Made by a program: the position numbers and the translations under genes. From assembly GCA_963782055.1 (NCBI GenBank), contig CAWAIF010000003.1, positions 5,280,001-5,344,000 of the forward strand: a DNA stretch of 64,000 nucleotides, read 5' to 3'. This DNA is from an uncultured delta proteobacterium (GTDB lineage Bacteria > Myxococcota_A > Polyangia > Polyangiales > Polyangiaceae). This document shows, in pieces, positions 6,345 through 64,000 of the stretch. Position 1 is the first letter of the stretch, and the number at the start of each line of letters is the position of its first letter. The notes under the pieces were generated by a model, which made no database searches, was not told the origin of the DNA, and worked only from the letters and a program-made list of their open reading frames with translations.

Positions 6345-6384
6345 CTCCGGACGGAAGGGGTTCTCGTGGTGTGCCAGGACCCTT

Positions 6385-25901: not shown

Positions 25902-26164
25902 TCGCCGCGCACGGTGTGCCCTCCGCGCTGGCCGATGCACGAGTGCGGGAGGACGAAGGGCATGCGCAACAGAAGCCACGCCCTGCCGGTCGCCATGCCT
26001 GTCGGAGCGGGAGAAGGGATTCGAATCCGAGTGCACGAGTGCATCGGCCGCCGCCCACCGTGTGCCCTCCGCGCTGGCCGATGCACGAGTGCGGGAGGAC
26101 GAAGGGCATGCGCAACAGAAGCCACGCCCTGCCGGTCGCCATGCCTGTCGGAGCGGGAGAAGGG
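25902..26164 (-). repeat. Left part of a 146-bp tandem repeat array; each unit carries the tRNA-Gly 3' end
   Basis: GTGTGCCCTCC at 25914 and 26060. GGAGCGGGAGAAGGG at 26004 and 26150. 26004-26025 is the reverse complement of the tRNA end TTCGAATCCCTTCTCCCGCTCC. Confidence 0.95.
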
Positions 26165-47524: not shown

Positions 47525-47587
47525 GGCGGCGGCAAGTCACGGCGTGCTACGCTTCGTAGCGTCACGTCGTACGTGTCGCCGCCCACG

Positions 47588-48721
47588 ATGGAGTTCATCA
47601 TCATGGGCAAGAGAAACGACGGCGGCGTCCGCACCGAGACTCGGCGCGGCGTCCACACCCTGGTCATTGACTTTACCTTTCGTGATTCGGACGGTCGCGC
47701 GCAGCGCTACCGGCGCGATGCGACCGTCCAGCAACGCGGCTCCGCGCTCGCGGAGGCCGCGCGGTTGCGACGGCTGGCCGTTGCGAACGGCACGCTCGAC
47801 ATCGCTCCGCAGGTGCAGACCTTTGCGGCGTTCGTCGCGACCGACTTCCGTCCGCTGGCCATGGCGAGGTACTCGCCGGCCACACGAGAGCGCTACGAGC
47901 GCGTTCTCACAGCGCCCGGCGGCCTGATCGAGCTTCTCGGCTCGGTGCGCATCGACGCCATCGGCGCTCGCGAGCTGAGGCTGGTCGAGGCAGAGCACCA
48001 TCGGCGTGGCACGAGCCCACGTCAGGCGCTCATCCTGGCGCACGGCATCATCCGGGTCGCCGTCGAGCACGGCAAGCTCACGCAGATGCCGGTGCTGCCC
48101 AAGCATCCGAAGGCACCGCGCAAGCTCCCTGCGTGCCCGAGTGTTGGCGATGTCCGTCGCCTTCTGGAGTCGGCGACCGGATGGCTTCGCGTTGCCGTCG
48201 CCGTCGCGGCACTTGGCGGGCTGCGCAACGGAGAGGCGCGGGCGCTGCGTGCCGGCGACGTCGACATCCAGACGGGCTTGCTCTGCGTGAGGCGGGCCTA
48301 CTCGCACCACGAGATCCGCAGCCCGAAGAGCAAGCTGGAGCGCGTGATCCCGATGGGCGACCTCCTCCGCGGCATCCTCGCGGAGGCGGTGCGCGGCAAG
48401 CGCCCGACGGACACGCTGGTGGTGACGGAGGACGGGCGCACGCCGAGCAGGCAAGCGCTGTACAAGTCCTTCACGTCGCTCTGCCGTCGCGCGGGCCTCG
48501 CGAGGACGTGGTCCTTCCACTCGCTGCGCCACGCCTTCGGCACGCACGCGCTCCGCGCCGGCGCCAACGTCGAGGCGGTGCGCGAGCTCCTCGGCCACCG
48601 CGACCTCGCGACCACGAGCGGTTACCTGCACGCTCTCGCTGCGGACAAACCGTCCGCTACCGAGGCGCTCAACAGGCAACTGGTCGGAAACGCCACCGAG
48701 CCGAATCACGTAACCGCTTAG
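47588..48721 (+). CDS. Tyrosine recombinase/integrase
   Basis: GLRNGE (R), PKSK (K), HSLRH, LLGH, GYLH (Y): full catalytic set. Confidence 0.95.
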   Translation: MEFIIMGKRNDGGVRTETRRGVHTLVIDFTFRDSDGRAQRYRRDATVQQRGSALAEAARLRRLAVANGTLDIAPQVQTFAAFVATDFRPLAMARYSPATRERYERVLTAPGGLIELLGSVRIDAIGARELRLVEAEHHRRGTSPRQALILAHGIIRVAVEHGKLTQMPVLPKHPKAPRKLPACPSVGDVRRLLESATGWLRVAVAVAALGGLRNGEARALRAGDVDIQTGLLCVRRAYSHHEIRSPKSKLERVIPMGDLLRGILAEAVRGKRPTDTLVVTEDGRTPSRQALYKSFTSLCRRAGLARTWSFHSLRHAFGTHALRAGANVEAVRELLGHRDLATTSGYLHALAADKPSATEALNRQLVGNATEPNHVTA

Positions 48722-48746: not shown

Positions 48747-48913
48747 GAGCGGGAGAAGGGATTCGAATCCGAGTGCACGAGTGCATCGGCCGCCGCCCAC
48801 CGTGTGCCCTCCGCGCTGGCCGATGCACGAGTGCGGGAGGACGAAGGGCATGCGCAACAGAAGCCACGCCCTGCCGGTCGCCATGCCTGTCGGAGCGGGA
48901 GAAGGGATTCGAA
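48747..48913 (-). repeat. Right part of the 146-bp tRNA-end repeat array
   Basis: 48747-48892 matches 26005-26150. GAGCGGGAGAAGGG at 48747 and 48893. Confidence 0.95.
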
Positions 48914-48936
48914 CCCTCGACGTCCACCTTGGCAAG
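48892..48936 (-). tRNA. 3' half of tRNA-Gly(GCC): att remnant or decayed tRNA, not a functional gene
   Basis: Minus strand CTTGCCAAGGTGGACGTCGAGGGTTCGAATCCCTTCTCCCGCTCC contains the anticodon loop, T arm and acceptor 3' strand. No normal D arm upstream. Confidence 0.85.
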
Positions 48937-49151: not shown

Positions 49152-50075
49152 TCATCGCTTCCACGCGGGTCCCTTCGGCGCCCATTCCGCCGCGAGCTCG
49201 CGTCCATCTCGTGCGGCCTCGAGCGGAGGCCAGAGGAACGGCGCGATGAAGTCCACGACGTGCGCCAGTGGGAGGTTGGCCGGCGCCAGCCTCCCACGCG
49301 TCATGAACGCCTTCCACTGCGTCGCTTTGGTTGCGTCGGCCGAGAAGGCCGGCGTCAGGGCCGTCGGCATCGCGTCGGGGATGGCGGTCCCGCGACGCGC
49401 GAACGTGGCGCGCATCGCGCCGCTCAGCACGGTGCCCTCGAACGCGAACGTCTGCGCCAGGAACCAGACGTCGAAGAAGTCCTTCATCCGGCTGTTCGCG
49501 ATGCCCAGATTGACCATCGCCTCGAGCTTCTCGGCGATGACGGACTCGCGCGGGTAGGCGCACAGCCTGGGCGGTGGCGCACCGAGCAGCGTCGGGAACT
49601 CGACCTCGACGACGGCGGGCGTGACGGCGTCGCCAAAGCCGACGTCGACCTGGAGCTCGAGCCGCGCGCTGCCGATGCGAGCGGTCACGTTGACACGGAC
49701 CCCCTCATACTCGGCGTCCTCCTTGATGCGCGCCGCGTGGACGCTCTTCGGGTCGAACGTGACGCCGTCGTCGTCCACCGCGACCGCGCACAGGTCTCGA
49801 AAGATGCCCTCGAGGCGGGGTATGTCGGGGGCACCCGTGCCGAGCAGGTCGAGGTCCTTCGTCGGTCGATGCAGTGCCGGCGACCAGACGCGGAAGAGCA
49901 TCGCCCCCTTCAGCGTGAACGCCTTGCGGTACGTCGACCGCTCGAGCCGCGCGAGCAGACGCTCCAGGGCGTAGCGCGTGAGCACGTACGTGAAGTCCTC
50001 GCCGCTCGCCTTCGACACGTTGAGCAGGCGCGCCCGAACCGACGCGGCCATGTTCGTCGGCTTGCCGGTCTTCAC
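49152..50075 (-). CDS. abiEii: AbiEii-family nucleotidyltransferase toxin (type IV TA)
   Basis: FTLKGA, RPTKDLD, DVGFGD, AEKLEA, NSRMKDFFD. Confidence 0.9.
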   Translation of the reverse strand: MKTGKPTNMAASVRARLLNVSKASGEDFTYVLTRYALERLLARLERSTYRKAFTLKGAMLFRVWSPALHRPTKDLDLLGTGAPDIPRLEGIFRDLCAVAVDDDGVTFDPKSVHAARIKEDAEYEGVRVNVTARIGSARLELQVDVGFGDAVTPAVVEVEFPTLLGAPPPRLCAYPRESVIAEKLEAMVNLGIANSRMKDFFDVWFLAQTFAFEGTVLSGAMRATFARRGTAIPDAMPTALTPAFSADATKATQWKAFMTRGRLAPANLPLAHVVDFIAPFLWPPLEAARDGRELAAEWAPKGPAWKR

Positions 50076-50677
50076 GCGAGCGACTCGAGGTAGGGGCGCA
50101 TCACGTTCGTGACGCGCGAAGCCGCGGCGGCCTTCATGAGCGCGTCCACGGAGCGGCGCTTCGAGCGGAGGTAGTCCCGCAGCGCCTCGAGCGCGACGTC
50201 GAGGCCAATCTTGTTGCGGTACTTGAAGCAGTCGGCGACCGTCTTCTCCTTCGAGGTGACGCGGACCGTCACCCCCTCGAGCTCGTGCTCCTCGACGCCA
50301 AACCGGAGGGCGACGCCCGAGAAGCGCACGATACGGAGGGGAGGCCAGTCGGTCTTGGGCTTGCGCGCCTTCACGTCGATGGCCAGCCAGACCTCGTGCG
50401 GACTCTGCGTCGTCAGGCCATGGAAGCGCAGCGCCGACAGCAGGCACACGACGCCGTGCGGGACGCGCGTGGCGGCCTCGACGAGCGTGTGGTGCTCGGT
50501 CGCCTTCACCTTCGCCGGGACGTAGAGCCCGCGCCCAACCCGCTCGAGCTGGCCCTGCTCCACGAGGCGCCCGAGTGCCGTGCGCGAGACGCCGCCGGCT
50601 ACGTCGCGCGGACGCAGAGCGCCGTGGCCATGGAGGGCAGCGGCGGCGCCGTTTGCTCGTTTGCGCTTCGTCGGCAC
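50072..50677 (-). CDS. abiEi: AbiEi-family antitoxin/transcriptional regulator
   Basis: GRGLY, VCLLSALRFHGLTTQ, EKTVADCFKYRNKIG; GTGA overlap with the toxin. Confidence 0.9.
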   Translation of the reverse strand: MPTKRKRANGAAAALHGHGALRPRDVAGGVSRTALGRLVEQGQLERVGRGLYVPAKVKATEHHTLVEAATRVPHGVVCLLSALRFHGLTTQSPHEVWLAIDVKARKPKTDWPPLRIVRFSGVALRFGVEEHELEGVTVRVTSKEKTVADCFKYRNKIGLDVALEALRDYLRSKRRSVDALMKAAAASRVTNVMRPYLESLA

Positions 50678-51136: not shown

Positions 51137-51502
51137 GTGATTCGCCTCCGCTTCGTCCAGGAGTACCGCGGCCGGCGCATCGTCACCAACGGCAAGCTCT
51201 ACGGCATCCAGGGCGAGCTCGTGACCGACTGCCGGTACTTGGACGTCGAGGGCGCGAGGGCCGCCATCAACTCCGAGGCGGGCGTCGCGGAACGCCGGAA
51301 GTACTTCGCGGCGCAGCGGCGGCACTTCGCGGCGCTCAGCGTGCAGGAGGGCGAGAAGTACGCCTTCGCCTGCGACTGCGGATGGCGCGGTCAGTACAAC
51401 CAGCCGGCGAAGGAGGGGCGCGATGTCGTCGTCGTGCGATGCCCGAAGTGCGCGAGCGACGACATCTACCTGGCCGTCCACGACGCTGCGGCCGAGCAGT
51501 GA
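51137..51502 (+). CDS. Hypothetical protein with C-terminal Zn ribbon
   Basis: CDCG...CPKC; GC3-biased codons. Confidence 0.6.
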   Translation: MIRLRFVQEYRGRRIVTNGKLYGIQGELVTDCRYLDVEGARAAINSEAGVAERRKYFAAQRRHFAALSVQEGEKYAFACDCGWRGQYNQPAKEGRDVVVVRCPKCASDDIYLAVHDAAAEQ

Positions 51503-51524
51503 GCGCTCGTGGTAGACAGCCGCC

Positions 51525-51878
51525 ATGCTCGTCGTCGACCCCTGGCACTGGCTCACCGAGGACGGTCACTTCCTCGTCGACAACCCACGCCTCTACCGCC
51601 AGATGCTGCGCATCGCGCGGTTCATCGAGTACGGCGGCGAGGTCCGGAAGAACGAGACGCGCGAGACCCTCATCGAGTGCAAGCGCCGGCCGAAGAGCAA
51701 GGCGTGCACCGGACTCATGTGGGTGGTGAAGACCGCCGACGACGGCATCCTCGCGCACTGCATGGTCTGCAAGACCCAGGAGGTGTTCATCCACAACTGG
51801 CAGGAGACCGAGTGGGCTGCCGGCATGATGGAGCCGGTGCCGGTAGCTCTGGGCCTGCGGGACAAGACGTTGAATTGA
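51525..51878 (+). CDS. Hypothetical Cys/Trp-rich protein
   Basis: ATG start, C...C...CMVC, HNWQETEWA; GC3-biased codons. Confidence 0.7.
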   Translation: MLVVDPWHWLTEDGHFLVDNPRLYRQMLRIARFIEYGGEVRKNETRETLIECKRRPKSKACTGLMWVVKTADDGILAHCMVCKTQEVFIHNWQETEWAAGMMEPVPVALGLRDKTLN

Positions 51879-52006
51879 CCCCACACCACCAGAACAATCT
51901 CGAGCACGTTGTAGTAATTCAACCGAGGCAGACTTGCCGCCGACCCTCTACACATGCCCGATTTGTTGGACCGCGCGCGCCGGCCGTGAATACAATCGCG
52001 CCCACC

Positions 52007-52450
52007 ATGCCCACCCTCCAGCAGCAGCTCCAAGCCCTCGCCAGCTCCTTCGCCCACGATGTTCTCGCCGCCATGCGCGGGGCGTCGCTCGAGGACCTGG
52101 TCGCCGAGTCCAGTCATGGGGGAACAGCAACGTCGCGGGCTCCTGGCGCGGCGAAGCGGTCGGCCAGGACGAAGGCCGCCGCCACGCAAGTTCCGGTTGC
52201 CACCACGAGGGCTCCGCGCACGGGCAAGGGTGGTCGCCTCTGGCGCCGGTCGCCCGAGGAGATTGAAGCCGTCGTCGGCAAGATTGCCGCCCTTCTGAAG
52301 ACGAAGAAGGATGGTCTTCGCGCGGAGCAGATTCAGGCCGCCCTGGGCCTGACGCGCAAGGAGCTGCCCAAGCCTCTCGCCGCCGGTCTGGCGGAGAAGA
52401 CGCTGAAGAAGAAGGGCAAGAAGCGGGCGACGATCTACTACGCGGCGTAG
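52007..52450 (+). CDS. Small basic DNA-binding protein (putative nucleoid-associated, wHTH C-terminus)
   Basis: N-terminal helix, Ala/Lys/Arg linker, RRSPEEI...GLRAEQI...KKGKKRATIY. Confidence 0.7.
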   Translation: MPTLQQQLQALASSFAHDVLAAMRGASLEDLVAESSHGGTATSRAPGAAKRSARTKAAATQVPVATTRAPRTGKGGRLWRRSPEEIEAVVGKIAALLKTKKDGLRAEQIQAALGLTRKELPKPLAAGLAEKTLKKKGKKRATIYYAA

Positions 52451-52707: not shown

Positions 52708-53442
52708 GTGGAGTCCGGAACGCATACCAGCATGGGCCCTGGCGGCGTCCTCGGAGCCGGCATCTACCCGGCTGGGGAGGCTGCGCGCCTGGCCCAGCTT
52801 GAGCCGCAGCGCCTACGCCGATGGGTTGCCGGCTACACGTTCCGCGCCCGCACGGGCGAGCGGCGGGCCTCCGGCCCCGTCTTCAAGGGCGACACGAGAC
52901 GTGACGGCCAACACCTCGTGTTGTCGTTCCTCGACCTCATCGAGGCATGCTTTGTGAAGGTGTTCCTCGACCATGGGGTCAGTCTGCACACCATCCGTCT
53001 CGTCGCCGAAGAGGCCGAGGTGATGTTCAAGACGACGCATCCCTTCTGTGTGAGGAAGTTCGAGACAGATGGGGAAACCATCCTGGCCCGGCTCCGTGAC
53101 GACCGCGTCGACGGAGAGCGCCTGCTCGATTTGAAGCGCAAGCACTTCGTCTTCCCCGTCGTGTTCAACCCCCTTTTGAAAACACTCGACTACGACGCCT
53201 CGGGCAACGCCATCCGCTGGTGGCCCCGCGGCAAGGGCACGCCCGTGGTCCTCGACCCGAACCGCGCGTTCGGCGCCGCCATCGTCGAGCGCTCCTGCGT
53301 CCCAACGCGTGCCTTGTTCGACGCACACCTTGCAGGTGAAACCCCCGAGAGTATCGCGAAGTGGTTTCGCGTCGAGCTCGACGAGGTACGGGCCGCCATC
53401 GCCTTCGAGAAGTTGCTCCGGCGCACTACGTCGCGCGCGTGA
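52708..53442 (+). CDS. HTH + DUF433 antitoxin (VapB45-like)
   Basis: GIYPAGEAARL, LSFLDLIE, FETDG, LDPNRAFGAAI, EVRAAIAFE. Confidence 0.82.
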   Translation: MESGTHTSMGPGGVLGAGIYPAGEAARLAQLEPQRLRRWVAGYTFRARTGERRASGPVFKGDTRRDGQHLVLSFLDLIEACFVKVFLDHGVSLHTIRLVAEEAEVMFKTTHPFCVRKFETDGETILARLRDDRVDGERLLDLKRKHFVFPVVFNPLLKTLDYDASGNAIRWWPRGKGTPVVLDPNRAFGAAIVERSCVPTRALFDAHLAGETPESIAKWFRVELDEVRAAIAFEKLLRRTTSRA

Positions 53443-53840
53443 GCCACTACTTCTTCGACAACAACATCGCGCCGGCCATCCCGGAGGCGCTCCGAGCTCT
53501 GAACCAAAGGGCCATCCACATCTGCGACTGCGCTGGACACGACATCGCACGCGATGCCATGGACATCGACTGGATGCCGAAGGTCGCGAAACTCGGGTGG
53601 GTCGCGGTCACGGTCGACAACAACATCCAGCGGCGCCGCGAGGAGAGGAACGTGCGCCAGGGCTGCGCGCTGCGCGTTGTCTACTTACCGGGCAAGTTTG
53701 GGCGGAATTTACGGTTCTTTCAACAAGCGGTCTTTATCATCCGCGCCTGGGAGAATATCATCGAGGCGACGAACGACGCGCGGTCGGGGCAGTGCTTCTC
53801 CGTGAGCGAGAAGAATCACAGGGTCAGCTTGATGAGGTGA
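53439..53840 (+). CDS. PIN-domain toxin (VapC45-like)
   Basis: YFFDNN, DIDW, VTVDNNI...EE; GTGA overlap with the antitoxin. Confidence 0.8.
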   Translation: MSHYFFDNNIAPAIPEALRALNQRAIHICDCAGHDIARDAMDIDWMPKVAKLGWVAVTVDNNIQRRREERNVRQGCALRVVYLPGKFGRNLRFFQQAVFIIRAWENIIEATNDARSGQCFSVSEKNHRVSLMR

Positions 53841-54668
53841 AGGACCCGATAGCCGTAGTCTCGGCTGTCGACGTTTACGGGTCCAGCGCTGCCGGGAAGT
53901 CACCGAACCCGTTCGCCGTCGCATTCCACGCGCGAATGTCGCTCCCAAACGTCGCGACGTAGGCCGCGACCATTTGTGCGAGTTCCTCTCCGGATTGGCG
54001 ACCGACGACGCAGATGTCTGTCTCCTCATGTCGTTCGCGGCGACAGCGAAGGCTGTCGCGCAGGAGCTCGCGCAGGTGGACGTCTGCGGGAGGCAGGCTG
54101 TACCCAATGAAGACCCAACGCGAGGCCCGAACGAACTCCTCGGCGGCCCGGCCCCAAACAAGTTGAAGGGCCGGGTCGTTGTAACTGCGCAGAAACGACG
54201 GGTACACCATCACGTACCCGAGTCGCTCCCGTGCGCACGCCCAGCACCGCGCCGCCTCTGCGACGTTCGCGTGTCTGTCCACGGTGGTGAAGACACTGTG
54301 GCATGCAAGACAACGGACCCAGTTAAGGGCCCCATGCAAGCGGAGAAGCAATATTGCTCGGTCGGGTCGTGGTTGTGCAAACTGAGGGGCCTCTGGGCAC
54401 CGGCCGTTGGAGAGAGTGATGCCATAGTCGAGGTCAACGTCTGCGACGCCGCCTCTCATATTCAAAAGGCACCGGTCAAGATTGATGTCGTAGTTCATCG
54501 TCACCAGTACATGCTGCCGTGCCGTACCGGCTCGAGCATCGGGCAGTAGCTTTTCCAACAACTCGGCGTATGGCGAGCGGGTCCGTGTGGGCTCTCACGA
54601 GCATGGGACCCCCGCTTCTCAGAAGCATTCCCCCCGGGGTCCTTGCGTGACTGCCCTATCTCCTTCTC

Positions 54669-55454
54669 CTAATTCGGGTCCTTCTGTCCAGCCCTACCGC
54701 CCTTCTTCAGCGAGGGCTTGAGGCGGCGGCGGTACGACTCGCCTTCGATGACGAGGTCGTAGGCGTTGCTGGTGAAGCGATCGATCGCGGCCTGGGCGCG
54801 GATGGGATCGGTGAACGTGGCGAGCCATTCGTCAGGTCCGCGGTTGGAGGTCACGATCATCGAGCCGCTCCGATGTCGTTCGGTCATGATCTCGTAGGCG
54901 TCGCGGCTCTCGGTCGCGTCCATCGCATCGAGACCGAAGTCGTCGACGATGAGGAGGTCGACGGCGATGAGGCGACGGAGCTCGGTCTCGTAGCTGTTGT
55001 CGAGGCGCGCGTGGCGCAGGGTCTTGAGCATGCGGTCTGCGCGCAGGACGAGAACGGAGTGGCCACGGCGACACGCCGCGTGGCCGAGCGCGTGCGCGAG
55101 GAACGTCTTTCCGACGCCGACGGGGCCGACGAGCGCGACGTGCGCGTGGGCCTCGACGAAGCGGAGCGAGATGAGCTCGTTGAGCAGCGCTTGGTCGTAG
55201 GTCACCTTCGAGCTCGGATCCCACTGCTCGATCTGCATCTGCGGATCGAGCTGGGCGCGAGCGGCGCGCATCGTGACCGACGCGCTGTCGCGACGCGACA
55301 CCTCGTCGGAGAGCAGGAGAAGGAGGAAGTCCTGGTGCGCCATCTTCTGCTGGCGCGCGAGCGTCAGCCTCTCGGGCAGCGTGTCGATGAGGCGCCCCAA
55401 TTTCAGGCGCTTCAGCGTGGTCGTGAGGTCGGGGCCGATCACATCGATGGTCAT
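54669..55454 (-). CDS. istB: IS21 helper ATPase
   Basis: GPVGVGKTFLA, LIVDDFGL, VTSNR, AAIDR. Confidence 0.93.
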   Translation of the reverse strand: MTIDVIGPDLTTTLKRLKLGRLIDTLPERLTLARQQKMAHQDFLLLLLSDEVSRRDSASVTMRAARAQLDPQMQIEQWDPSSKVTYDQALLNELISLRFVEAHAHVALVGPVGVGKTFLAHALGHAACRRGHSVLVLRADRMLKTLRHARLDNSYETELRRLIAVDLLIVDDFGLDAMDATESRDAYEIMTERHRSGSMIVTSNRGPDEWLATFTDPIRAQAAIDRFTSNAYDLVIEGESYRRRLKPSLKKGGRAGQKDPN

Positions 55455-57019
55455 GCGGTATCTCCTTCTTTCTTCGGTTGCACGGCGTAGGTTTCGGCCG
55501 GGCGCAGGTAGCGTCCGAGCGGGATCACATTGGTGGGCGTCGGCGCGCTCGCAGGCGTCGTACCGAGCTCGAGCATCCGCGCGAGGCGATGCACGCTGAC
55601 CATGTCGGCCGCGAGGGCACGCGCGCACGCGTCGTCGACGCGCGTAGCGCCGAAGCGACGCACGAGGCCGAGCAGCGCGCGGACGCCGCGCATCTTGGTC
55701 CAGGGGAGCGGCGCCTCGAGCAAGCGGCCGGCGAACAGGCAGATGGACTCGCCGTGCTTGCGCGCTTGCTCGTGGAGGAACGTCACGTCGCGCATCGCAT
55801 AGGGGCGACGGTCCTCGGGGAAGTCGCTCGGATCGGTCGAGCGCCCGCCACGCTGTTGCCGCGGGTGAGTCTTGACCAGGACGCCGGCGTCGTAGAAGCG
55901 CACGAGCTGCGAGTCGGCGCGGGAGCGCAGGCGCTTGCCGATCAGGCGCGTGGGCAACGAGTAGAGCGCACACTCCACCTGGGCGAAGTGGTCGCGCGCC
56001 ACTTTGGGATCGCCCCAGGAGGGCACGTCGAAGGGAGCCGTCGGGGCGGGCAGGAGCGCGGGCTTCTCGACGGCTTCGAAGTGCTCGCGTGGAAGACGGT
56101 ACGTCGTCGAATGCCTGCGCATCCCGTACTCGCGCTCGCACCAGCGGAGCGCGTGCACGCGGGTCATCTCGAGGTCGAGCATCCGCTCGCCGCCGAAGCA
56201 GTCGTCGCGGACATCTCGCACGCTCCGCTCGACGCGGCCCTTGTCCGTCGGCGTGCGCACCCGCGCGGGGTCGATGTGGAAGCCGCGTGCCTGGGCGTAC
56301 TCGAGGAACGCCGTGGTGATCGTCGGCTCGAGCGGGTCCGCCGTCTGCACGATCGCCTTGGTGTTGTCGGGCAGCAGGACGCGGAAGACGCCGCCGTAGA
56401 ACTCCCACGCGGCCTCGCACGCCTCGATCGCCGTCGCGGTGGACTCCGACCAGCAGGGGTAGACGAATCGGTAGCGCGAGACGTTGGGCGTGAAGATCCA
56501 CGCGCGGAAGCGGTGGCGACGGCCCGAGCCATCGGGCTCGAGCAACGTCATCCAGCCGGTGTCGACCTGGAGCTCCTCACCGGGCTGCCCGTCGACGACG
56601 GGCAGCGTCACGGTCTTGCGGCCGAAGCCGAGCTCGACGGCGGCAAAGCGATGCAGCGTCGAGTACGGAATGTCCACGCCGTCGCGGAGCAACAGGCGCC
56701 GCACCTTCGACAGCCGGACGCGACCGTCGAGCTTCTCCTCGATGAATGGGCGATGCTCCTGGCATCGCTTCCACGCCTCGCCGTGCAGCCGCGTGGGCGC
56801 GCCGCAGAGCGTCGCGAGGATCGCGTTGAGGACCTCGTCCGTCAGCGCGCTCTCGCCCTGTCCGGCGGCAAGCCCGCACTGCTCGGCGGCCCGCGCGTAG
56901 CGCCGCACGGTCTTCGGGTCGAGCCCTACGCGTGCCGCCACTCGCTTCTTCCCGACCCCGGCCAGCCACTGCCGGAGCACCTCCTTGACCTCGATCATCG
57001 TGACCTCGCGGAATGCCAT
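55451..57019 (-). CDS. istA: IS21 transposase
   Basis: PGEELQVD, LPDNTKAIV, PTDKGRVER. Confidence 0.93.
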   Translation of the reverse strand: MAFREVTMIEVKEVLRQWLAGVGKKRVAARVGLDPKTVRRYARAAEQCGLAAGQGESALTDEVLNAILATLCGAPTRLHGEAWKRCQEHRPFIEEKLDGRVRLSKVRRLLLRDGVDIPYSTLHRFAAVELGFGRKTVTLPVVDGQPGEELQVDTGWMTLLEPDGSGRRHRFRAWIFTPNVSRYRFVYPCWSESTATAIEACEAAWEFYGGVFRVLLPDNTKAIVQTADPLEPTITTAFLEYAQARGFHIDPARVRTPTDKGRVERSVRDVRDDCFGGERMLDLEMTRVHALRWCEREYGMRRHSTTYRLPREHFEAVEKPALLPAPTAPFDVPSWGDPKVARDHFAQVECALYSLPTRLIGKRLRSRADSQLVRFYDAGVLVKTHPRQQRGGRSTDPSDFPEDRRPYAMRDVTFLHEQARKHGESICLFAGRLLEAPLPWTKMRGVRALLGLVRRFGATRVDDACARALAADMVSVHRLARMLELGTTPASAPTPTNVIPLGRYLRPAETYAVQPKKEGDTA

Positions 57020-57679
57020 CGACGCCTCCCGGAACGGCCACCCGTGCCGGTCCTTCTGCGTCGTTACGAGCAATCACGCGAGGGGGGGGAATGCTTCTGA
57101 GAAACTCGCCTCCCGAGGGGGGGAAAGGTCCTGAGAAACTTTCAGCCCCGAGGGGGGAATCCTTCTGAGAAAAACGTCATGCCGGGGTCCCTAGGTCGTG
57201 AGAACTGACAGTCCGCTCGCGAGCGTGCGGTTTCCATTTCAACGAGTCGCCTCGACCGTAGCTCATTGTTGCTCGTCGCAAGGCCTCGCGAAGCCTGTCC
57301 AGTGCTACTTCGGCAGCGCGACGGCTCTCGGGCGACGTCCGCGTTTCGAAAAGTGCCAGCTCGTACGCCGAGAAGACCTCCTCCAGACTCAGACGAGGGT
57401 CGTCCATTGCCAGGCCTGGCTGCACGCGCGCGCAGAGCTGGCGAACGGTCTCCTGTAGTTCCGCGAGACCGCCGGGCTCGTCCGCAGGTCGACCCGCGGG
57501 CTGCATCCCCGCGAGCCGCTTGAGCATGTGAACCTGCGCGGGAATGGTGTAGGGCGGTGGTGCGGACGCGCCCGCACCAAAGACCCATACCGTTCGAGCA
57601 TGACCCAGCGCGAGCCGGTCAAAGGTCGCCATCGTCTCCCGCCCATCCTTTGCGTGGCCCGAAGGTGCCGACGCGGGTG

Positions 57680-58408
57680 TCACGCGCCGACCCACTCCGC
57701 AAGCGGGGCGAGGAAGCTCTGCCAAATGTGGTCCGACGTCCACACGTTCTCCGTTCGGCGTCGCTCCGAGCATTGGAACGTGGCGCCGACGTAGGCATCG
57801 ACCCACGTGAAGCCGTCGACGTCCTGAAGTGCAGACGCGAGCGCTGCGTCGCTTGCTACCGACCCGAACAGCTTGTGATATCGGGAGCGCTTGGGCTCGA
57901 GTTGAACGGCGAGCTGTCCACCGTTCCCAAGTGCCACGGACAAGACCTCGCGGTCGCCGCGGGGTGAGCCCGGCGAAAGAATCGGCCCGAGAACGAAGCA
58001 AAGCGTCACGTCGAGCCCAGTGGTGCGCCCGACATCGCGAATCCTCTCCGTGACGCGCCCCGAACGGAGGTCCCTCAAGAAGCGCGACCACATCCAGTCG
58101 CCGGTTACAACTACGCTCTGCCCGGCGTCGAGTGCGGCGGCAGCGTCCTTCGACAAGCCCTTCTCAACGTAGAGCGCAACGTCGAGCGTGTCCGGCTCGT
58201 CGCCGAACTCGAACGCGTACTTGCCGAGGTGGTAGGCCGGCCAGTCGCCACGCTCGTCCTGCGGAACGAGCCACCAGAGCGTCTCCCGCGGCTCGTATTG
58301 GTTCCACAGCCGCGCGGAGAGCTTGCCGAGGCGCTCACGAAGCGCCGGGACTCCCTGCAACTCCTTGCAGGCATCCTCCGGACAGGCGAACGACACCCAC
58401 GGTTCCAT
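57680..58408 (-). CDS. Hypothetical protein (Trp-rich), directly upstream of the SIR2 gene
   Basis: GAGGTGG RBS before ATG 58408. LWWLVP...DWPAYHLGKY, YVEKG. No family recognised. Confidence 0.7.
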   Translation of the reverse strand: MEPWVSFACPEDACKELQGVPALRERLGKLSARLWNQYEPRETLWWLVPQDERGDWPAYHLGKYAFEFGDEPDTLDVALYVEKGLSKDAAAALDAGQSVVVTGDWMWSRFLRDLRSGRVTERIRDVGRTTGLDVTLCFVLGPILSPGSPRGDREVLSVALGNGGQLAVQLEPKRSRYHKLFGSVASDAALASALQDVDGFTWVDAYVGATFQCSERRRTENVWTSDHIWQSFLAPLAEWVGA

Positions 58409-58544
58409 CGACCACCTCTTCGTTGACGGCCCTGACCATGCTGCTCTCACGTCCGGCCCGAGACAAGGGCAAGGAGCCAAGCAGCCCGCGTCCATGCACC
58501 GGTGGCATCGGTCGGACTTCCCCGGACAAGCGAAGGCGGGGCAA

Positions 58545-59666
58545 TCAGCTCGCCGCCGCCTTGATGCGGCCGACCTCGTGGACAAACCCCGCCACGTCCC
58601 GCGGGAACTCCGGCGAGCCCACCCTTCCGACCACCACCACCCGGCTCGGCTCCTCCCGGTCGGGCTCCCGCATCTTCACGCCGCCGCGGAAACGCTTCCA
58701 GAACAGGTCCGGACCGATGCCCTTCTGGCCGCCGCCGATGCGACCGCGGTGGACGAGGTAGATGTCTCCGGTGTGCGGGTCGCGGGCGAAGGCGCCGCCC
58801 ATCTTCCGGTCCACGCCCTCCAGCGGCGGGTTCACCTCCACCGTGATTTGCAGCGACCTGGCCGGGTCCGGCCGCGAGATGCCGAAGGCGTTCCAGTAGC
58901 GGTTGTCGAGCTTCTTGAAGAGCGCCCACATCTTGAGGGGCGGGGACCAGTGGATGGTGTAGATGCCGCTGCCCCCGTGGTAGCCCACCTTCTGCTGGCG
59001 CTTCCCGGCTGCGACGCCTGCGAGCTGGTCCTGGACGTCCTTCATCGCCTTGCGCACCGTCTTGCCGTCGACGATGAGCTCGAGCTCCGGCATGTCCGCG
59101 TCGGGTGCCGTCGACCGGATGAACGGCGCGCCCAGCTCCATGAGCTCGTCCCAGAGCTCCACGCCGTCGTAGAACGCCGTCGCGTAGTACTCGAGCTCCG
59201 AGGCGGACGGGACGTGGGCCCTCGCGCGCGCCTTCCTGAGGAGCGCTTCGACGGATGCGGCGAAGGGGTCGAGGGCGGCGCCCTGCCAGTGGACCATCCC
59301 GTCGAGCGGAGCCATCAGGCCGGCGGGGGCGAGCCGCCCCGCGCCCATCAGCACCCGCGCCTCGTTCCCACGCTGGAAGCGATAGACGTTTGCGCGGAAG
59401 GAGCCGTCGGCGGCGGGCACGAAGCGCAGGCAGTCGTGGTCCTGCAGCCACTCCAGCGCGGCGGGCTCCGACCGCAGGCCGTCGACCGCGACGAAGGCGG
59501 CCTCAATCTTCGTGGCGTTCCTCTCCAGGGCGGCCCAGAGCGACCACTTGCCGGCGCTCGAGGCCGCCGCCGGCGTGGCGAACGACATCCTCTCGCACCA
59601 GTCGCACGCCTCCTCGAACGCCGTGTGCACCGCGGCCGGGGTGGTGAGAACGCGCAGCTCGCTCAT
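58545..59666 (-). CDS. Two-domain protein with a degenerate PLD-like N-terminal domain
   Basis: SFRANVYRF...VLMGAGRLAPAGL aligns by eye with FHxKxYxF...GSANxTxxGL but lacks the catalytic residues. C-terminal YWNAFG...HRGRIGGG domain. Confidence 0.7.
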   Translation of the reverse strand: MSELRVLTTPAAVHTAFEEACDWCERMSFATPAAASSAGKWSLWAALERNATKIEAAFVAVDGLRSEPAALEWLQDHDCLRFVPAADGSFRANVYRFQRGNEARVLMGAGRLAPAGLMAPLDGMVHWQGAALDPFAASVEALLRKARARAHVPSASELEYYATAFYDGVELWDELMELGAPFIRSTAPDADMPELELIVDGKTVRKAMKDVQDQLAGVAAGKRQQKVGYHGGSGIYTIHWSPPLKMWALFKKLDNRYWNAFGISRPDPARSLQITVEVNPPLEGVDRKMGGAFARDPHTGDIYLVHRGRIGGGQKGIGPDLFWKRFRGGVKMREPDREEPSRVVVVGRVGSPEFPRDVAGFVHEVGRIKAAAS

Positions 59667-59668
59667 GG

Positions 59669-62029
59669 TTACAGGTCCATTCCCGTGCCCGGCTTCTTGT
59701 GGGCGTAGTAGCGGGTGAAGGTGTCGAAGAACATGTCCGCCCGCACGCGCCAGAAGTCCGGGCTGGCGTTGGGGCCCGGCTTGACGCCCCGCCGCTGGGC
59801 GTCCTCGAGCGCATCCAGCGACGGCGCGTAGGCGCGCTCCCGCTGCCGGAAGTCACGGTTGTGCCCGGCGCTCGGCATGTCGGCGTGGAGCATCTCGTGG
59901 AACATCAGAAACTCCACGACGAAGAGCGGGACGTCCGGCGAGTTCAGGACGCAGTTGAGGGTGATGCTCTTGTCGGAGTAGCGGCAGAATCCCCAGAGGC
60001 TGGTGGTCACCCGCGTGGACCACCGCATGTCGCCGATGAGCGGCGAGCCGTTCGGGAAGTGCTTCTTCACGCTGAGCACGCCGTCACGGAGCGCCGTCAG
60101 GGAGTAGCCCCGCTCACCCTCCGGCCACCCGCGCGGCGCATCGGTCGGCACCACCTTCACCACCTCCGGCGCGGCCGGCGGCTTGGGCGGGCTCAGGATG
60201 TTGTTCAGCTCCCGGCTGACGTCTTCGATGAACGCGTGCTGGTCGTCCCGGTAGACGCCCCGGCACGCCGGTTTGGCGTCCCAGATGTCCTGCATGAACT
60301 TCTGCTGCGCCAGCAGGGCGAGGTTCTGGTCGACCATGGCGCGCGCCACCGTGCGGGGGTCGAACGCCTTCTTCTCCTCGAAGGTGTAGCTGTGGATGGT
60401 GCAGCCCTTCCGCCGCGCGTCGAGCAGGCCCTTGATATCGGCCCAGCGGGGGAGCGGGTCGGGTACGTCGGCGAAGTACTTGCGGAGCAGGTCGCGCGCG
60501 ATGTCTTCGGTCACGTCCTCGGGGACGGACTCGGGCGTGGGGAAGGCGGCGAGGAGCGCGGCGAGCTGCTCGTGCTGGTTGTCGAAGACCATCACCGACC
60601 GGCGCTGCAGGTCGTCCTCGAAGGTCTCCTCCCACGTGTACCAGCTGTGCGGAAGGCACTGAAAGACGCCCTCCAGCTGGCCGCGGACGTTGCTCTGCAG
60701 CAGCCGGTACGCCTCGCGCACCAGCTCCACGGGGATGGGGATGCGCTGGGTGTCCGTCGGTGCCGCGGTCTCCTTCGAGACATCGAGCGGCTCGCTCAGC
60801 ACGTACTCGGCGTCGAGCACGTTGAACTGCTCCCAGGTGTCGAGGAAGGTGACCAGGTACGCCGTCTCGTTGCCGCTCGACTCCTTGCCGCGCAGCGCCC
60901 GGCCGACCATCTGCGCCAGCAGCCCCTCCGAGTGTGTCGGCCGGGCGATGAAGACGGTGCGCGTGTGCGGGGCGTCGAAGCCCTCGGTCAGCATCTCGAC
61001 ATTGACCAGCACGTCGGGCTTCTTCTTCTCCTGGTACCTGACGATGATGTCCTGCGCGTCGTCGCGGCTATAGTCGACGTAGTCCGCGTCCACGCCCTTC
61101 TTCTGGAACTCGCCGGCGAGGGTCTGCGCGTGCAGCGTGTCCGCGGCGAAGACGATGGTCGGCCCGTACGTCCCGCGCTTCTTCAGGTAGTGCTCGACGA
61201 TGAGCTGGTTGCGCGAGGCGTTCTTGGCGAGCCGGCCGAGCACGTTGGGGGCCAGCTCCCCGAAGCGCTCCAGGTGCTTGTAGTCCTCCGGCGTGAAGTC
61301 CTTCTCCAGATTCACGTTGGTCTTCACCGTCTCGAAGCTGGGGGCCGCGAGGATGCCGCGCTCGGTGAGCTCCCGGCGGGTGACCTGGTAGACGACAGTC
61401 TTGTCGAAGAGCGCGCTCAGGCGCTTCTCGTCCTCCTCGTCCGAGCGCACCGGCGTCGCGGTGAGGCCGAGCAGGGGCGCGCCGGCCTTCTTCAGCTTCT
61501 TGAGCAGGTCGTAGGAGCGGGGGGCTGGCGCGTGGTGCGCCTCGTCCAGCACGACGAAGAGGCCGCCGGGCGAGCCGTCCTGGAGCTCCGCGAGGAAGCC
61601 GGTGTTGAGCACCGCGCTCTGCATCGACGAGAAGACGACCTCGTGCTCCGGGCTCACCGCCGACCACTTGCCGAAGACGGAGGAGATGGCGATGAAGTTC
61701 AGCGACTCCTTGCGCGGGTGGGCGACGTTGGCGATGCGCCGGAAGGCGTTGAAGGCCTGGCGGAGGAGACTGCGCCGGTGGGCGAGCCAGAGCACCCGCC
61801 CGCCGTTGGCGATGTGGTTGCTGAGGAGCCAGTGCGCGGCGAGCAGGGTCTTGCCGCCGCCGGTGGGGACGACGACGAGGCCCGCCTGCTTCCTGTTGTT
61901 CAAGAAGTGGGCGCTGAGGCGGTCCTGCGCCGCGAGCTGGTGGTGATGCAGCGTCACGGGGCTCGGCTGCGCGCGCAGCTTCAGGCGGACGTCGTGCTCC
62001 CAGGTGGAGGAATCAGTGGTCGTGATCAT
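59669..62029 (-). CDS. SF2 (ResIII/DEAH-like) helicase fused to a C-terminal HExxH zinc-metalloprotease (YgjP/SprT-like) domain
   Basis: PTGGGKT, DEAHH, TATP, MLTEGFDAP, QMVGRALR; then WGFC...ITLN...FHEMLH...GHNRDF. Confidence 0.88.
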   Translation of the reverse strand: MITTTDSSTWEHDVRLKLRAQPSPVTLHHHQLAAQDRLSAHFLNNRKQAGLVVVPTGGGKTLLAAHWLLSNHIANGGRVLWLAHRRSLLRQAFNAFRRIANVAHPRKESLNFIAISSVFGKWSAVSPEHEVVFSSMQSAVLNTGFLAELQDGSPGGLFVVLDEAHHAPAPRSYDLLKKLKKAGAPLLGLTATPVRSDEEDEKRLSALFDKTVVYQVTRRELTERGILAAPSFETVKTNVNLEKDFTPEDYKHLERFGELAPNVLGRLAKNASRNQLIVEHYLKKRGTYGPTIVFAADTLHAQTLAGEFQKKGVDADYVDYSRDDAQDIIVRYQEKKKPDVLVNVEMLTEGFDAPHTRTVFIARPTHSEGLLAQMVGRALRGKESSGNETAYLVTFLDTWEQFNVLDAEYVLSEPLDVSKETAAPTDTQRIPIPVELVREAYRLLQSNVRGQLEGVFQCLPHSWYTWEETFEDDLQRRSVMVFDNQHEQLAALLAAFPTPESVPEDVTEDIARDLLRKYFADVPDPLPRWADIKGLLDARRKGCTIHSYTFEEKKAFDPRTVARAMVDQNLALLAQQKFMQDIWDAKPACRGVYRDDQHAFIEDVSRELNNILSPPKPPAAPEVVKVVPTDAPRGWPEGERGYSLTALRDGVLSVKKHFPNGSPLIGDMRWSTRVTTSLWGFCRYSDKSITLNCVLNSPDVPLFVVEFLMFHEMLHADMPSAGHNRDFRQRERAYAPSLDALEDAQRRGVKPGPNASPDFWRVRADMFFDTFTRYYAHKKPGTGMDL

Positions 62030-62167
62030 CGTCTTGCCTCCTGAGGACGATGCCAGCGCCGTGCCAACAAGTGACCCCCTGATTTCCCGCCAACAAGGGC
62101 TCGCTGCCGTAAGGAACCTACCGAGATCGGAAGCTTCCTTCTCCCCCAGTACATGTCGGCCAAACAG

Positions 62168-63865
62168 CTACCTGAGGCCCGACAGCGACACGCCTCGCAG
62201 CGCCGCGGCAAACTCGGAGCACGTGTCGAAACGCTCGTCAAAGTCCGGGCTCAGCGCTCGGAGGAGCGCATCGTTCTGCGGCTCGCTCAATCGCGCGAAC
62301 GTCCGCGGTCGGTAGGGCGCCGTGAAGACCCGGCCCTCGAGCATCGAGGAGAAGACGAGCGCCAGGGAATACTGGTCGGACTTCTTGTGAGCCTGGGCGC
62401 CCTCCCGCTGCTCGGGTGCGGCGTAGGCCGGGGTGTATCCGCGTGGGTGCGTCGCCAGGACGGTGTGCTTCCCGACCGTGTTCTTCCCAGCGGTGCCCTT
62501 CAGCGCGATCCCGAAGTCCGTCACCCGCACGTTCCAGGTGGCTCCCCGCGTCTCCACGAGAATGTTCCCCGGCTTCACGTCCTGGTGGATCACGCTGCAG
62601 CGGTGCGCGAAGTCGAGCCCGGCCGCCACCTGCGTGACCACGTCCACCGCACGCCCGATGCTCAGCTCCCCGATCTCCGTGAGCACGTCCTCGAGGGACC
62701 GGCCTCCATGCTGCAGGACGAGGTAGGTCCCGTGGATCGGGTCACGGCCGTAGTCCTTGTAGGCACAGATGTTCTGGTGGCTCAGATCGTACGCCACGCC
62801 AATCTCCTCCCGCAGTGACTCGTGGGCCTCGGGCAGCCCCAGCTTGACCACCACACGGTGCTCGGGCAGGTCTACGCGCGTCGCTTCGAAGACTCTCCCA
62901 AACCCTCCTGCGCCAAGCTCACGCCCGAGCTTGTACTTACCGCCGAGGAGCGGCGCCGGCGGGTTGGTTGGTGCGGGGGATGCGGGGGCCGCCGCCGGCG
63001 CACTCGGTGGCGCGGCAGGGGGCCGTTCCGGACGCCTCCCCCTCGGCCGTAGCTCCGGCACGAGCGTATCCACGCGCGTGTTGCCCTGAGCGTCGGCAAG
63101 GCGCTGCCACACTTCACTCGGGGGTAGCTCCACGACATCGGCGATCAGCCGCACCAGCGATGGCGAGCGTCTCGCCCCCGCCGAGGTAAGTGATCCCAGC
63201 ACGTCCCGAGGCACGTCCCCCAGCTCGTCCGGTGGCCACCTGGCATCGAATACGTTCCGCAACAGGGTTCGGCCATGCGCGACACGCAGTCGCTTGCCGG
63301 CCGAGGCGGGCGTGATGCCCAGCAGCTCCGCGAGCCAGCCGATGAACGCTCCGGATCCTCGAACGGACACGGCGCGTACAGCCGCGAGAAGCTCCACAGC
63401 GGAGAATCGCCTCCGGCCGTCACGGAACGCGGCGTCGTCGTGGACCACTGGCCTGTCGCGCTCTTCCCCCTCGTCCTCGTCGTCGTCCTCGTCGTCGTCC
63501 TCGTCGTCGTCCTCGTCGTCGTCGTACTCCACCAGCTCGGGGAACGTGTTTCCAACGAGCGCGTTGCCGTGGGTGTGGTTCAGGCGCTGCCGGACGGTCC
63601 GCATGCTGAGACCCGCTGCAACAGCTATCTCCCGGTCGAGCGCCGCCTCGCGCGCCAAGGCCACCGTGAGCGGCCCGAGGGTGTCCACGTCCGTCGGCCA
63701 ATCGTCCCACAGCGCGTTGCGCACCAGCATGTTGCCGCGTGCGCTACGAATCCGGCTACGGATAGCGCGCTGGGACAGACCGGTGACCGCCGCTAGGAGA
63801 GGGGCATAGTCTTCGTCCAGATCCTCCACCTCGGAGCAGCGCAGGTCGCCGATTCCGGTACCCAT
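62168..63865 (-). CDS. Hanks-type Ser/Thr kinase with four N-terminal helical repeats and an acidic linker
   Basis: GAGGFGRV, VVK, HQDVKPGN, DFG, YAAPE, SDQYS; no TM segment. Confidence 0.9.
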   Translation of the reverse strand: MGTGIGDLRCSEVEDLDEDYAPLLAAVTGLSQRAIRSRIRSARGNMLVRNALWDDWPTDVDTLGPLTVALAREAALDREIAVAAGLSMRTVRQRLNHTHGNALVGNTFPELVEYDDDEDDDEDDDEDDDEDEGEERDRPVVHDDAAFRDGRRRFSAVELLAAVRAVSVRGSGAFIGWLAELLGITPASAGKRLRVAHGRTLLRNVFDARWPPDELGDVPRDVLGSLTSAGARRSPSLVRLIADVVELPPSEVWQRLADAQGNTRVDTLVPELRPRGRRPERPPAAPPSAPAAAPASPAPTNPPAPLLGGKYKLGRELGAGGFGRVFEATRVDLPEHRVVVKLGLPEAHESLREEIGVAYDLSHQNICAYKDYGRDPIHGTYLVLQHGGRSLEDVLTEIGELSIGRAVDVVTQVAAGLDFAHRCSVIHQDVKPGNILVETRGATWNVRVTDFGIALKGTAGKNTVGKHTVLATHPRGYTPAYAAPEQREGAQAHKKSDQYSLALVFSSMLEGRVFTAPYRPRTFARLSEPQNDALLRALSPDFDERFDTCSEFAAALRGVSLSGLR

Positions 63866-64000
63866 GGCACCACAACATACAACAGACCGTGGCGGGAGTG
63901 GTGCACCCGGAGGCGGGAAACCGAGCGGCGAGCCGGACGCTACCGCCAGCCCGCACCCCGACGAAGCCGCTCCACCAGCTTCTTGAGCCGGATGGTCACC

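Follow-up and report, generated by a model that had tools for sequence, protein, structure and literature searches.

We analysed a 64,000-nucleotide stretch of DNA from an uncultured delta proteobacterium of the Polyangiaceae (assembly GCA_963782055.1, contig CAWAIF010000003.1, positions 5,280,001 to 5,344,000), hereafter the window, towards the far end of which a run of minus-strand genes had been proposed in a preliminary description to form one anti-phage system of five genes: kinase, helicase/protease, dead PLD, unknown protein and SIR2. We lean, by a little, towards the locus being the distal part of an RtcR-type defence superoperon that carries two undescribed, separable modules. In our best reading, module A consists of a HEPN RNase-like protein and a repeat-bearing Ser/Thr kinase, and module B of an SF2 helicase-peptidase and a dead-PLD protein. 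Gene content, folds, motifs, linkage, kinase–HEPN fusions, mobility of the repeat and sigma54-like sites were observed directly; the mechanism set out below, which we include in this reading, is inferred. The locus is a candidate for an undescribed defence arrangement made from known domain types, with borders and an effector other than those first proposed. The features concerned are as follows.

63940..64000, minus strand: 3' end of a HEPN-like gene (163 aa), which continues beyond the window (L001 3940–4431)
62168..63865, minus strand: Ser/Thr kinase of 565 aa, with four ~56-aa helix-turn-helix (HTH)-like repeats, an acidic linker and then the kinase domain
62051..62066, minus strand: putative sigma54-type -24/-12 site, 37 bp before the helicase start
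59669..62029, minus strand: SF2 (ResIII/DEAD) helicase-like ATPase of 786 aa with a C-terminal YgjP/DUF45-like HExxH zinc peptidase
58545..59666, minus strand: dead-PLD protein of 373 aa, with a degenerate PLD-nuclease fold (residues 1 to ~165) and an unannotated C-domain (~190–373)

All five open reading frames (ORFs) of the original proposal were recovered on the minus strand at the same positions, and their intergenic gaps of 138, 2, 136 and 47 bp were reproduced exactly. A sixth gene, absent from that proposal, lies at the window edge: the HEPN-like gene, of which the last 20 codons fall within the window, ends 74 bp before the kinase. The same strand carries, upstream, a CARF-sigma54 activator (PADLOC RtcR_PspF2, 7e-182), hsdR, hsdM and hsdS (PADLOC REase_I, MTase_I and Specificity_I), two unrelated inserts and then the HEPN-like gene.

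We compared 30 non-redundant loci (designated by L numbers), collected via the helicase, PLD, kinase, HEPN and repeat, using the same hidden Markov models (HMMs) throughout and counting duplicate DNA once. Among the 12 close helicase loci other than the window, the PLD gene adjoins the helicase in eight (one contig ends inside the helicase) and a repeat-bearing protein does so in seven. HEPN and kinase genes both adjoin the helicase in five other genomes (L003, L004, L005, L152 and L153), one of which is labelled as a different phylum, and at L320 and L322 the adjoining repeat-bearing protein is not a kinase. Named close homologues come mostly from Polyangiaceae or Myxococcales, in line with a probable myxobacterial host. 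The full set of four genes is found in L003, L004 and L005. The window shares the gene order HEPN–kinase–helicase with L003 and L152, and L004, L005 and L153 have kinase–HEPN–helicase, the three frames abutting or overlapping in L153. Type I restriction-modification (R-M) genes precede the set in the window, L003, L004, L005 and L152 but not in L153, and several module loci have no type I R-M neighbour. Each half is also found alone, the helicase without the kinase at L002, L007, L020 and L021, and kinase plus HEPN without the helicase at eight loci (L154, L272, L275, L284, L312, L317, L280 and L283); hence we treat them as separable modules with a persistent link. The SIR2 gene and the gene for the unknown protein (242 aa) are absent from every one of the 30 loci that have helicase, PLD, kinase or repeat, and the loci of their own homologues lack module genes, which speaks against a single five-gene system. 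The search for conserved synteny of the helicase–HExxH gene suggested in the preliminary description thus retrieves PLD (8/12) and kinase with HEPN (5/12), but never SIR2 or the 242-aa gene. Its fallback of two adjacent smaller systems is closer to the data, although the boundary falls elsewhere, the partner of the kinase being the upstream HEPN gene.

The kinase domain matches Pkinase at 1e-30, with catalytic motifs intact and invariant in the alignment. The repeat HMM places the four N-terminal repeats at about residues 5–57, 62–112, 160–211 and 223–274, and inspection found no membrane anchor, in keeping with its earlier description as a soluble Ser/Thr kinase with repeats. The HEPN assignment of the 163-aa protein rests on a sequence-feature match, not on a predicted structure: against RiboL-PSP-HEPN clusters it scored 0.96 in the ESM Atlas, with 193 of 256 features in common and all of the top ten matches from the same family. 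Pfam PF18735 (E 0.018) is matched in only one of seven members of the 163-aa family. Four of the seven split homologues have the HEPN motif RNxxxH and three have RNxxxK, the window copy being among the latter, so that its Rx4H reads Rx4K.

Repeat, kinase and HEPN form one ORF, with Rx4H intact, in five genomes (L272, L275, L284, L312 and L317); two belong to one genus, giving four genera, and three were found by the HEPN profile and two by the repeat profile. At L280 and L283 a SAP-domain kinase is followed by a HEPN gene, both with Rx4H kept. A quick tree, built from 66 kinase domains and without L312, L317 and L335–L338, unites the 12 HEPN-linked kinases tested (split, fused and SAP-type) in one clade with a Shimodaira–Hasegawa-like approximate likelihood ratio (SH-aLRT) of 99. 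Where repeat-kinase loci were found without HEPN as a query, HEPN is adjacent or fused in 8 of 12. Weaker HEPN matches have a kinase adjacent or fused at 14 of the 16 fetched loci (of 25), against a background in the window's genome (7.58 Mb, about 170 kinase domains) of a kinase at 8.8% of random positions; nine of these weaker kinase-adjacent loci use a second kinase clade. A protein search with the HEPN region of a fusion scored 8000 candidates and recovered nothing but the query. Neighbours of kinase–HEPN loci include GmrSD, MmeI, type III R-M, type I R-M, OLD-TOPRIM and a Lon-type protein, the remaining loci sitting among toxin-antitoxin (TA)-like or unannotated genes. In L270–L285 (family f6 genomes) the second clade (SH-aLRT 99) stands beside related HEPN genes, often divergently transcribed, possibly as an independent kinase–HEPN pairing.

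The ~56-aa repeat gives only weak, sub-threshold and generic HTH matches and nothing in the PDB below E 0.11, and its profile matches 20 of the 391 genomes of the order. It is a mobile module, fused to several defence proteins besides kinases: to type I HsdM in L314 and L316, as a seven-copy array to a CAP12-type TIR domain in L313, to GmrSD_N in L323 and to DUF4145/HEPN-like heads in L321 (by Pfam) and L319, L322 and L324 (by inspection). A dead-PLD homologue, P0173, carries two copies. The repeat offers a handle for finding defence genes, every nameable non-kinase fusion partner being a defence domain. Since SAP, a DNA-binding domain, replaces or supplements the repeat and an Arg-rich helix is present, its features suggest nucleic-acid binding, the alternative being a protein-recruiting adaptor. 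A homotypic repeat–repeat link to the helicase found no support, the repeat being absent from all 150 helicase representatives scanned. The two HsdM fusions (L314:6775–8790 and L316:6855–8921) each have two N-terminal copies and belong by inspection to different HsdM subfamilies, and the array at L313:7091–8974 comprises seven near-identical 60-aa repeats on a CAP12/Pycsar-type TIR protein, set in a neighbourhood of housekeeping genes where no cyclase was seen. A scan with the kinase returned generic kinases in 71 of 77 cases.

In module B, the ATPase carries Walker A, DEAH and motif VI and, at residues 711–715 of its tail, a YgjP-like HExxH (E 7e-5; 23.3 bits, below the Pfam cut-off of 26), which bears out the earlier annotation of an SF2 helicase with an HExxH protease, if with a weak Pfam match. 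The HExxH and a downstream His are invariant in six of six sequences. The tail is a predicted peptidase, although E. coli YgjP has been reported as a nucleotide pyrophosphatase, so that its chemistry may be another. The family numbers 1,299 representatives at E<=1e-30, and the C-terminal HExxH is kept in 93 of the top 150. Among 14 scanned, one has HNH and seven have TPR repeats, so that the tail region is exchangeable. Of 80 loci from a metagenome scan with the helicase alignment, 79 match the peptidase tail only, and a plasmid collection yielded two partial matches and no full-length helicase. The helicase is split by a frameshift, through assembly error or decay, at two homologous loci (L153:6357–6429 and L322), and a free-standing YgjP-like peptidase follows hsdR in L314.

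The predicted model of the PLD N-domain superposes on the PLD domain of SauUSI (7clg) with Z 15.3 and rmsd (root-mean-square deviation) 2.8 over 159 aligned residues; its Foldseek match is 3.7e-5 and it has no Pfam match. Mean pLDDT (predicted local distance difference test) of the whole model is 53.9, the N-domain lying mostly above 60. HxK, given in the available part of PMC7913695 as the catalytic motif of the SauUSI PLD domain, is lost: with the register taken from the sequence pattern, Arg replaces His in 39 of 41 homologues and Lys is found in none. The protein had been described as a catalytically degenerate PLD, and fold and missing motif agree with this. For its C-domain, 27 members share no Pfam match. 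This domain is modelled confidently (pLDDT 93.6) and yielded nothing in Foldseek at E<=0.001 (best Z by VIA 4.4), no PDB sequence match and no Atlas match, nulls that establish neither a new fold nor the absence of a known one, such as the SRA/PUA-like modified-base reader of a SauUSI-type enzyme. Elsewhere the C-domain precedes PD-(D/E)xK-like nucleases (by motif inspection) or HNH (two proteins, PF01844), a position N-terminal to the nuclease that target-reading domains hold in modular restriction nucleases, according to the accessible portion of 10.1101/2025.03.31.646159. It is a candidate for a new DNA-reading domain without a solved relative. Across L116–L146 it is widespread, in bacteria and archaea, as the N-terminal domain of stand-alone PD-(D/E)xK-like or HNH proteins. 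At L004:13727–22346 the PLD gene is followed by genes for a 1127-aa protein and a 1774-aa DEAD/MZB helicase, a pair that we take to resemble Druantia type III, as in CoCoNuT superoperons.

Both the type I R-M operon and module B are preceded by sigma54-like sites. Only two strict sites occur in the 58.5-kb island that holds the locus, one before hsdR and one before the helicase, with no shared upstream activator palindrome evident between the two. Related sites precede four helicase orthologues. A relaxed pattern, with a background of 0.008 per 130 nt, occurs within 130 nt of the helicase start at five of 11 loci, exactly those after type I R-M, and before hsdR in three of three. RtcR-led superoperons with type I R-M have been described in PMC11090510, where, in the part available, RtcR-like activators are proposed, as a hypothesis, to sense cyclic-phosphate RNA ends from HEPN RNases and so to drive the superoperons. 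By analogy, the same RNA-end feedback loop is plausible at this locus.

We found no described system with this combination of genes, as the preliminary description had supposed. Of the proteins at the locus, 18 were run against PADLOC (2023) and 14 against NCBIfam (2026); both gave domain-level matches only, all NCBIfam scores falling below cut-offs, and the PADLOC check proposed for the cluster matched no known system model. Searches of the open full-text literature, as distinct from subscription papers and supplementary tables, yielded neither a bacterial kinase–HEPN defence protein nor this helicase-peptidase pair, and the available part of PMC12839542 contains none of the peptidase terms; the supplementary tables of the HEPN, CoCoNuT and DefensePredictor papers could list these proteins.

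The superoperon itself resembles the RtcR-led CoCoNuT superoperons in its CARF-sigma54 activator, type I R-M and co-directional defence genes including HEPN and kinase (PMC11090510, available part), whereas the distal cargo differs; from the activator to SIR2, the same proteins showed no McrB/McrC, coiled-coil nuclease or TerY-P triad. The kinase–HEPN combination is an analogue of Ire1 and RNase L, with sensor repeats, kinase and Rx4H-bearing HEPN in one chain in five genomes and a kinase gene directly followed by a HEPN gene at six more loci. It differs in being bacterial, in using an HTH-like repeat or SAP as the sensor rather than an ankyrin or lumenal domain, and in a HEPN resembling RiboL-PSP-HEPN and not KEN, which the part of PMC3710099 available lists as eukaryotic; in the window, moreover, kinase and HEPN are separate genes and the HEPN lacks the His. 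Like PD-T4-6, MAD6 (MADS) and PglW (BREX-2), the window has a Hanks-type kinase domain in a restriction-linked island. The PADLOC matches of 6e-40 and 2e-36 cover the kinase domain only, NCBIfam scores are 103 bits for MAD6 (cut-off 460) and 66 for PglW (cut-off 990), and none of these proteins has the ~56-aa repeat or a HEPN partner. Stk2 is another defence kinase.

Module B recalls the type IV enzyme SauUSI in that its PLD fold is closest to that enzyme and its SF2 ATPase has mREase_IV as best PADLOC match (2e-22, partial). SauUSI, however, combines PLD, SF2 ATPase and target recognition domain in one chain, and here PLD and ATPase are two genes 2 bp apart. This layout is nearer to NgoAVII/CglI (4rct; Z 10.4 for the PLD N-domain), in which the R subunit, with PLD and recognition domain, is separate from the ATPase (PMC7913695, available part), and the two-gene layout recurs in eight of 12 other close loci. 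In contrast to both SauUSI and NgoAVII, HxK is lost, so that there is no active PLD nuclease; the C-domain matches no solved fold, the ATPase bears a zinc-peptidase tail and the pair has no fixed cognate methyltransferase.

Downstream of module B lie the two remaining genes of the original five, one of them interrupted by an insertion sequence (IS).

57680..58408, minus strand: gene for the 242-aa protein, a rare family with no link to the module genes
57211..57632, minus strand: 5' part of a SIR2-like gene, with a GAGAS motif, ending at the IS target duplication
54586..57210, minus strand: IS21-family element, istA and istB, inserted in the SIR2 gene
53875..54585, minus strand: 3' part of the SIR2-like gene, with NYD, HG, two CxxC and GYS motifs intact (SIR2_2, E 2e-4)

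The IS21 element, already described as splitting the SIR2 gene, is 2625 bp long (Pfam IstB, 1e-54); it ends in inverted repeats and is flanked by a target duplication of 5 bp. A metagenome contig of 2655 bp spans only 54585–57214, which confirms its ends. The element is single-copy in the genome and present as a free element in four DNA runs, in which no IS-free SIR2 allele was found. Removing IS21 and one duplicate gives a 1128-nt gene in frame, and the rejoined halves align end to end with three intact homologues, with GAGAS, NYD, HG, CxxC and GYS kept; hence the gene was recently broken. SIR2 homologues occur in four other genomes of 401 searched, at none of whose four loci are module genes present. 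The 242-aa family comprises ten proteins, including itself, among 2380 candidates, has no Pfam or PDB match and occurs at one other locus, adjoining an HsdS-like ORF and without any module gene; a relationship to the C-domain of the PLD partner was rejected (hhalign probability 0.3). The 242-aa gene and SIR2 are cargo without linkage to the modules, SIR2 as a broken passenger. Like the SIR2 effectors of Thoeris (ThsA), SIR2-HerA, short prokaryotic Argonaute (pAgo) and DSR systems, the SIR2 protein has a SIR2_2-type core with motifs intact; unlike these, it is a single domain of ~375 aa with a zinc ribbon, is IS-interrupted and has weak PADLOC matches (best 5e-5). No HerA, TIR or pAgo partner matched among its neighbours by Pfam or PADLOC, or was seen by ORF inspection in the neighbourhoods of its homologues.

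The mechanism that we favour would proceed as follows. The HTH-like repeats would bind DNA or a DNA-bound complex and so cluster the kinase; clustering and phosphorylation would control HEPN dimerisation and RNA cleavage, leading to growth arrest as for Ire1/RNase L. Cyclic-phosphate RNA ends might then feed the CARF activator and raise transcription of hsdRMS and module B. Module B could be a rewired SauUSI/NgoAVII-like motor tracking foreign DNA, with the dead PLD as a scaffold and its C-domain reading the foreign DNA, and it would end in the cleavage not of DNA but of a protein, either DNA-bound or regulatory. Judged from the sequences, toxicity is likely to come from cleavage of RNA or from phosphorylation and not from loss of NAD+. 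The kinase/protease switch coupled to NAD+ depletion that had been suggested is not borne out by the synteny of SIR2, and a rebuilt five-gene operon with an NAD+ readout would address the wrong unit. In this genome both obvious toxic outputs, HEPN and SIR2, look weakened, and because the HEPN His is replaced by Lys and SIR2 is broken, the kinase or the peptidase would be the remaining likely output.

The boldest form of this proposal is a myxobacterial soluble DNA-sensing kinase–HEPN RNase wired through repeats to a DNA-translocating protease, its RNA fragments feeding the CARF-sigma54 activator in a sense-amplify-arrest circuit; we hold it tentatively, as doubtful but worth stating. Eukaryotic antiviral and stress responses depend heavily on HEPN RNases under kinase control, and the circuit would be a bacterial counterpart of RNase L/Ire1 with the same domain order. 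Soluble bacterial kinase–HEPN proteins, fused and split, in restriction islands would let an origin of this logic in phage defence be tested. Likewise, a dead-nuclease restriction chassis with a peptidase on its motor would be a new output for helicase motors. To our knowledge, myxobacterial defence has been little studied.

Several observations weigh against our two-module superoperon. The HEPN His is missing in three of the seven split copies, that of the window included, and modules A and B can each be found without the other in several genomes. Related myxobacterial metagenome-assembled genomes make up most of the sample, so that the linkage counts are not independent. Four repeat-kinase loci in three more distant genomes (L335–L338) have no HEPN match nearby, two of them without evident defence context. 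The HTH matches of the repeat are all below cut-off, the kinase tree is only a quick search and the relaxed sigma54 pattern was picked after the sites had been seen. Ser replaces the catalytic-loop Lys in all fused and SAP-type kinases, which may mean that the fused forms do not work like the split ones; this state resembles the RNase L pseudokinase.

The solitary occurrence of each module also fits a rather unlikely but serious alternative: two small systems, wholly independent of each other, that have nothing more in common than a defence-island hotspot behind type I R-M. One would be a TA-like kinase–HEPN pair, phosphorylation keeping the RNase off with the logic of the kinase antitoxin TakA/TglT, and the other a helicase-peptidase/dead-PLD pair; the separate sigma54-like site that divides the modules in this genome points the same way. 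Adjacency, however, holds in two gene orders and, in L153, without type I R-M, while repeat-bearing non-kinase proteins adjoin the helicase in L320 and L322 and repeats occur on the PLD homologue P0173. The loss of the HEPN His, the free-standing peptidase after hsdR in L314, the repeat on HsdM and GmrSD and the sigma54-like sites before both hsdR and the helicase would also suit modules that assist restriction enzymes instead of killing the cell. In that case the helicase-peptidase would strip or degrade proteins that shield or block DNA (anti-restriction mimics, stalled HsdR or cross-links), the kinase would regulate restriction and the HEPN here would be an adaptor without catalytic activity, comparable to the DUF4145 head of HsdR. 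We think this improbable, given that Rx4H is kept in all five fusions and both SAP-type pairs and that several module loci lie apart from type I R-M. Least probable by far is the five-gene system with a kinase/protease switch that turns on NAD+ depletion by SIR2: in its favour are the common strand, the short gaps and SIR2 catalytic motifs that were intact until the IS inserted, but it is largely refuted by synteny, with SIR2 and the 242-aa gene in none of the 30 module loci, four SIR2 homologue loci devoid of module genes and SIR2 disrupted while the other genes stay intact.

The two-module superoperon lies in a defence island of ~58.5 kb, as had been recognized from its neighbours; AbiE, a TA pair, type I R-M and the CARF-sigma54 activator are all at the locus. 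The VapBC45-like TA pair and tRNA remnant of the preliminary description correspond to DUF433/PIN_10 genes and a 44-bp tRNA-Gly copy.

52708..53840, plus strand: DUF433/HTH antitoxin-like gene and PIN_10 toxin-like gene, a neighbouring TA pair
49152..50677, minus strand: AbiEi/AbiEii pair, a neighbour (PADLOC 9e-82 and 8e-118)
48893..48936, minus strand: tRNA-Gly(GCC) remnant, an exact 44-bp copy of the tRNA 3' part and an attachment (att) end

The opposite end of the island is an intact tRNA-Gly(GCC) at C3:5387335–5387407. The tRNA-Gly 3' end is present in three copies in the window (26005–26025, 48747–48767 and 48893–48936), near which about 60 bp of flank are also repeated, and these mark two islands stacked at one tRNA, with an integrase at 47573–48721. 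The inner island of ~23 kb holds an integrase, a D5-type primase, IS21, IS66 and a 1436-aa TSP3-repeat protein, the outer one being the 58.5-kb defence island. The two inserts between hsdS and the HEPN gene encode a collagen-like signal-bearing protein and a 389-aa protein of no assigned family (L001:4448–5158 and 5190–6359). Other genomes have an AAA/DUF3696 pair, Schlafen-RecG or a 1233-aa protein there, which makes the site a slot for variable cargo. Three small plus-strand ORFs (window 51137–52450) separate the AbiE pair from the PIN pair; by inspection, two encode zinc-ribbon-like proteins and one a small basic histone-like DNA-binding protein.

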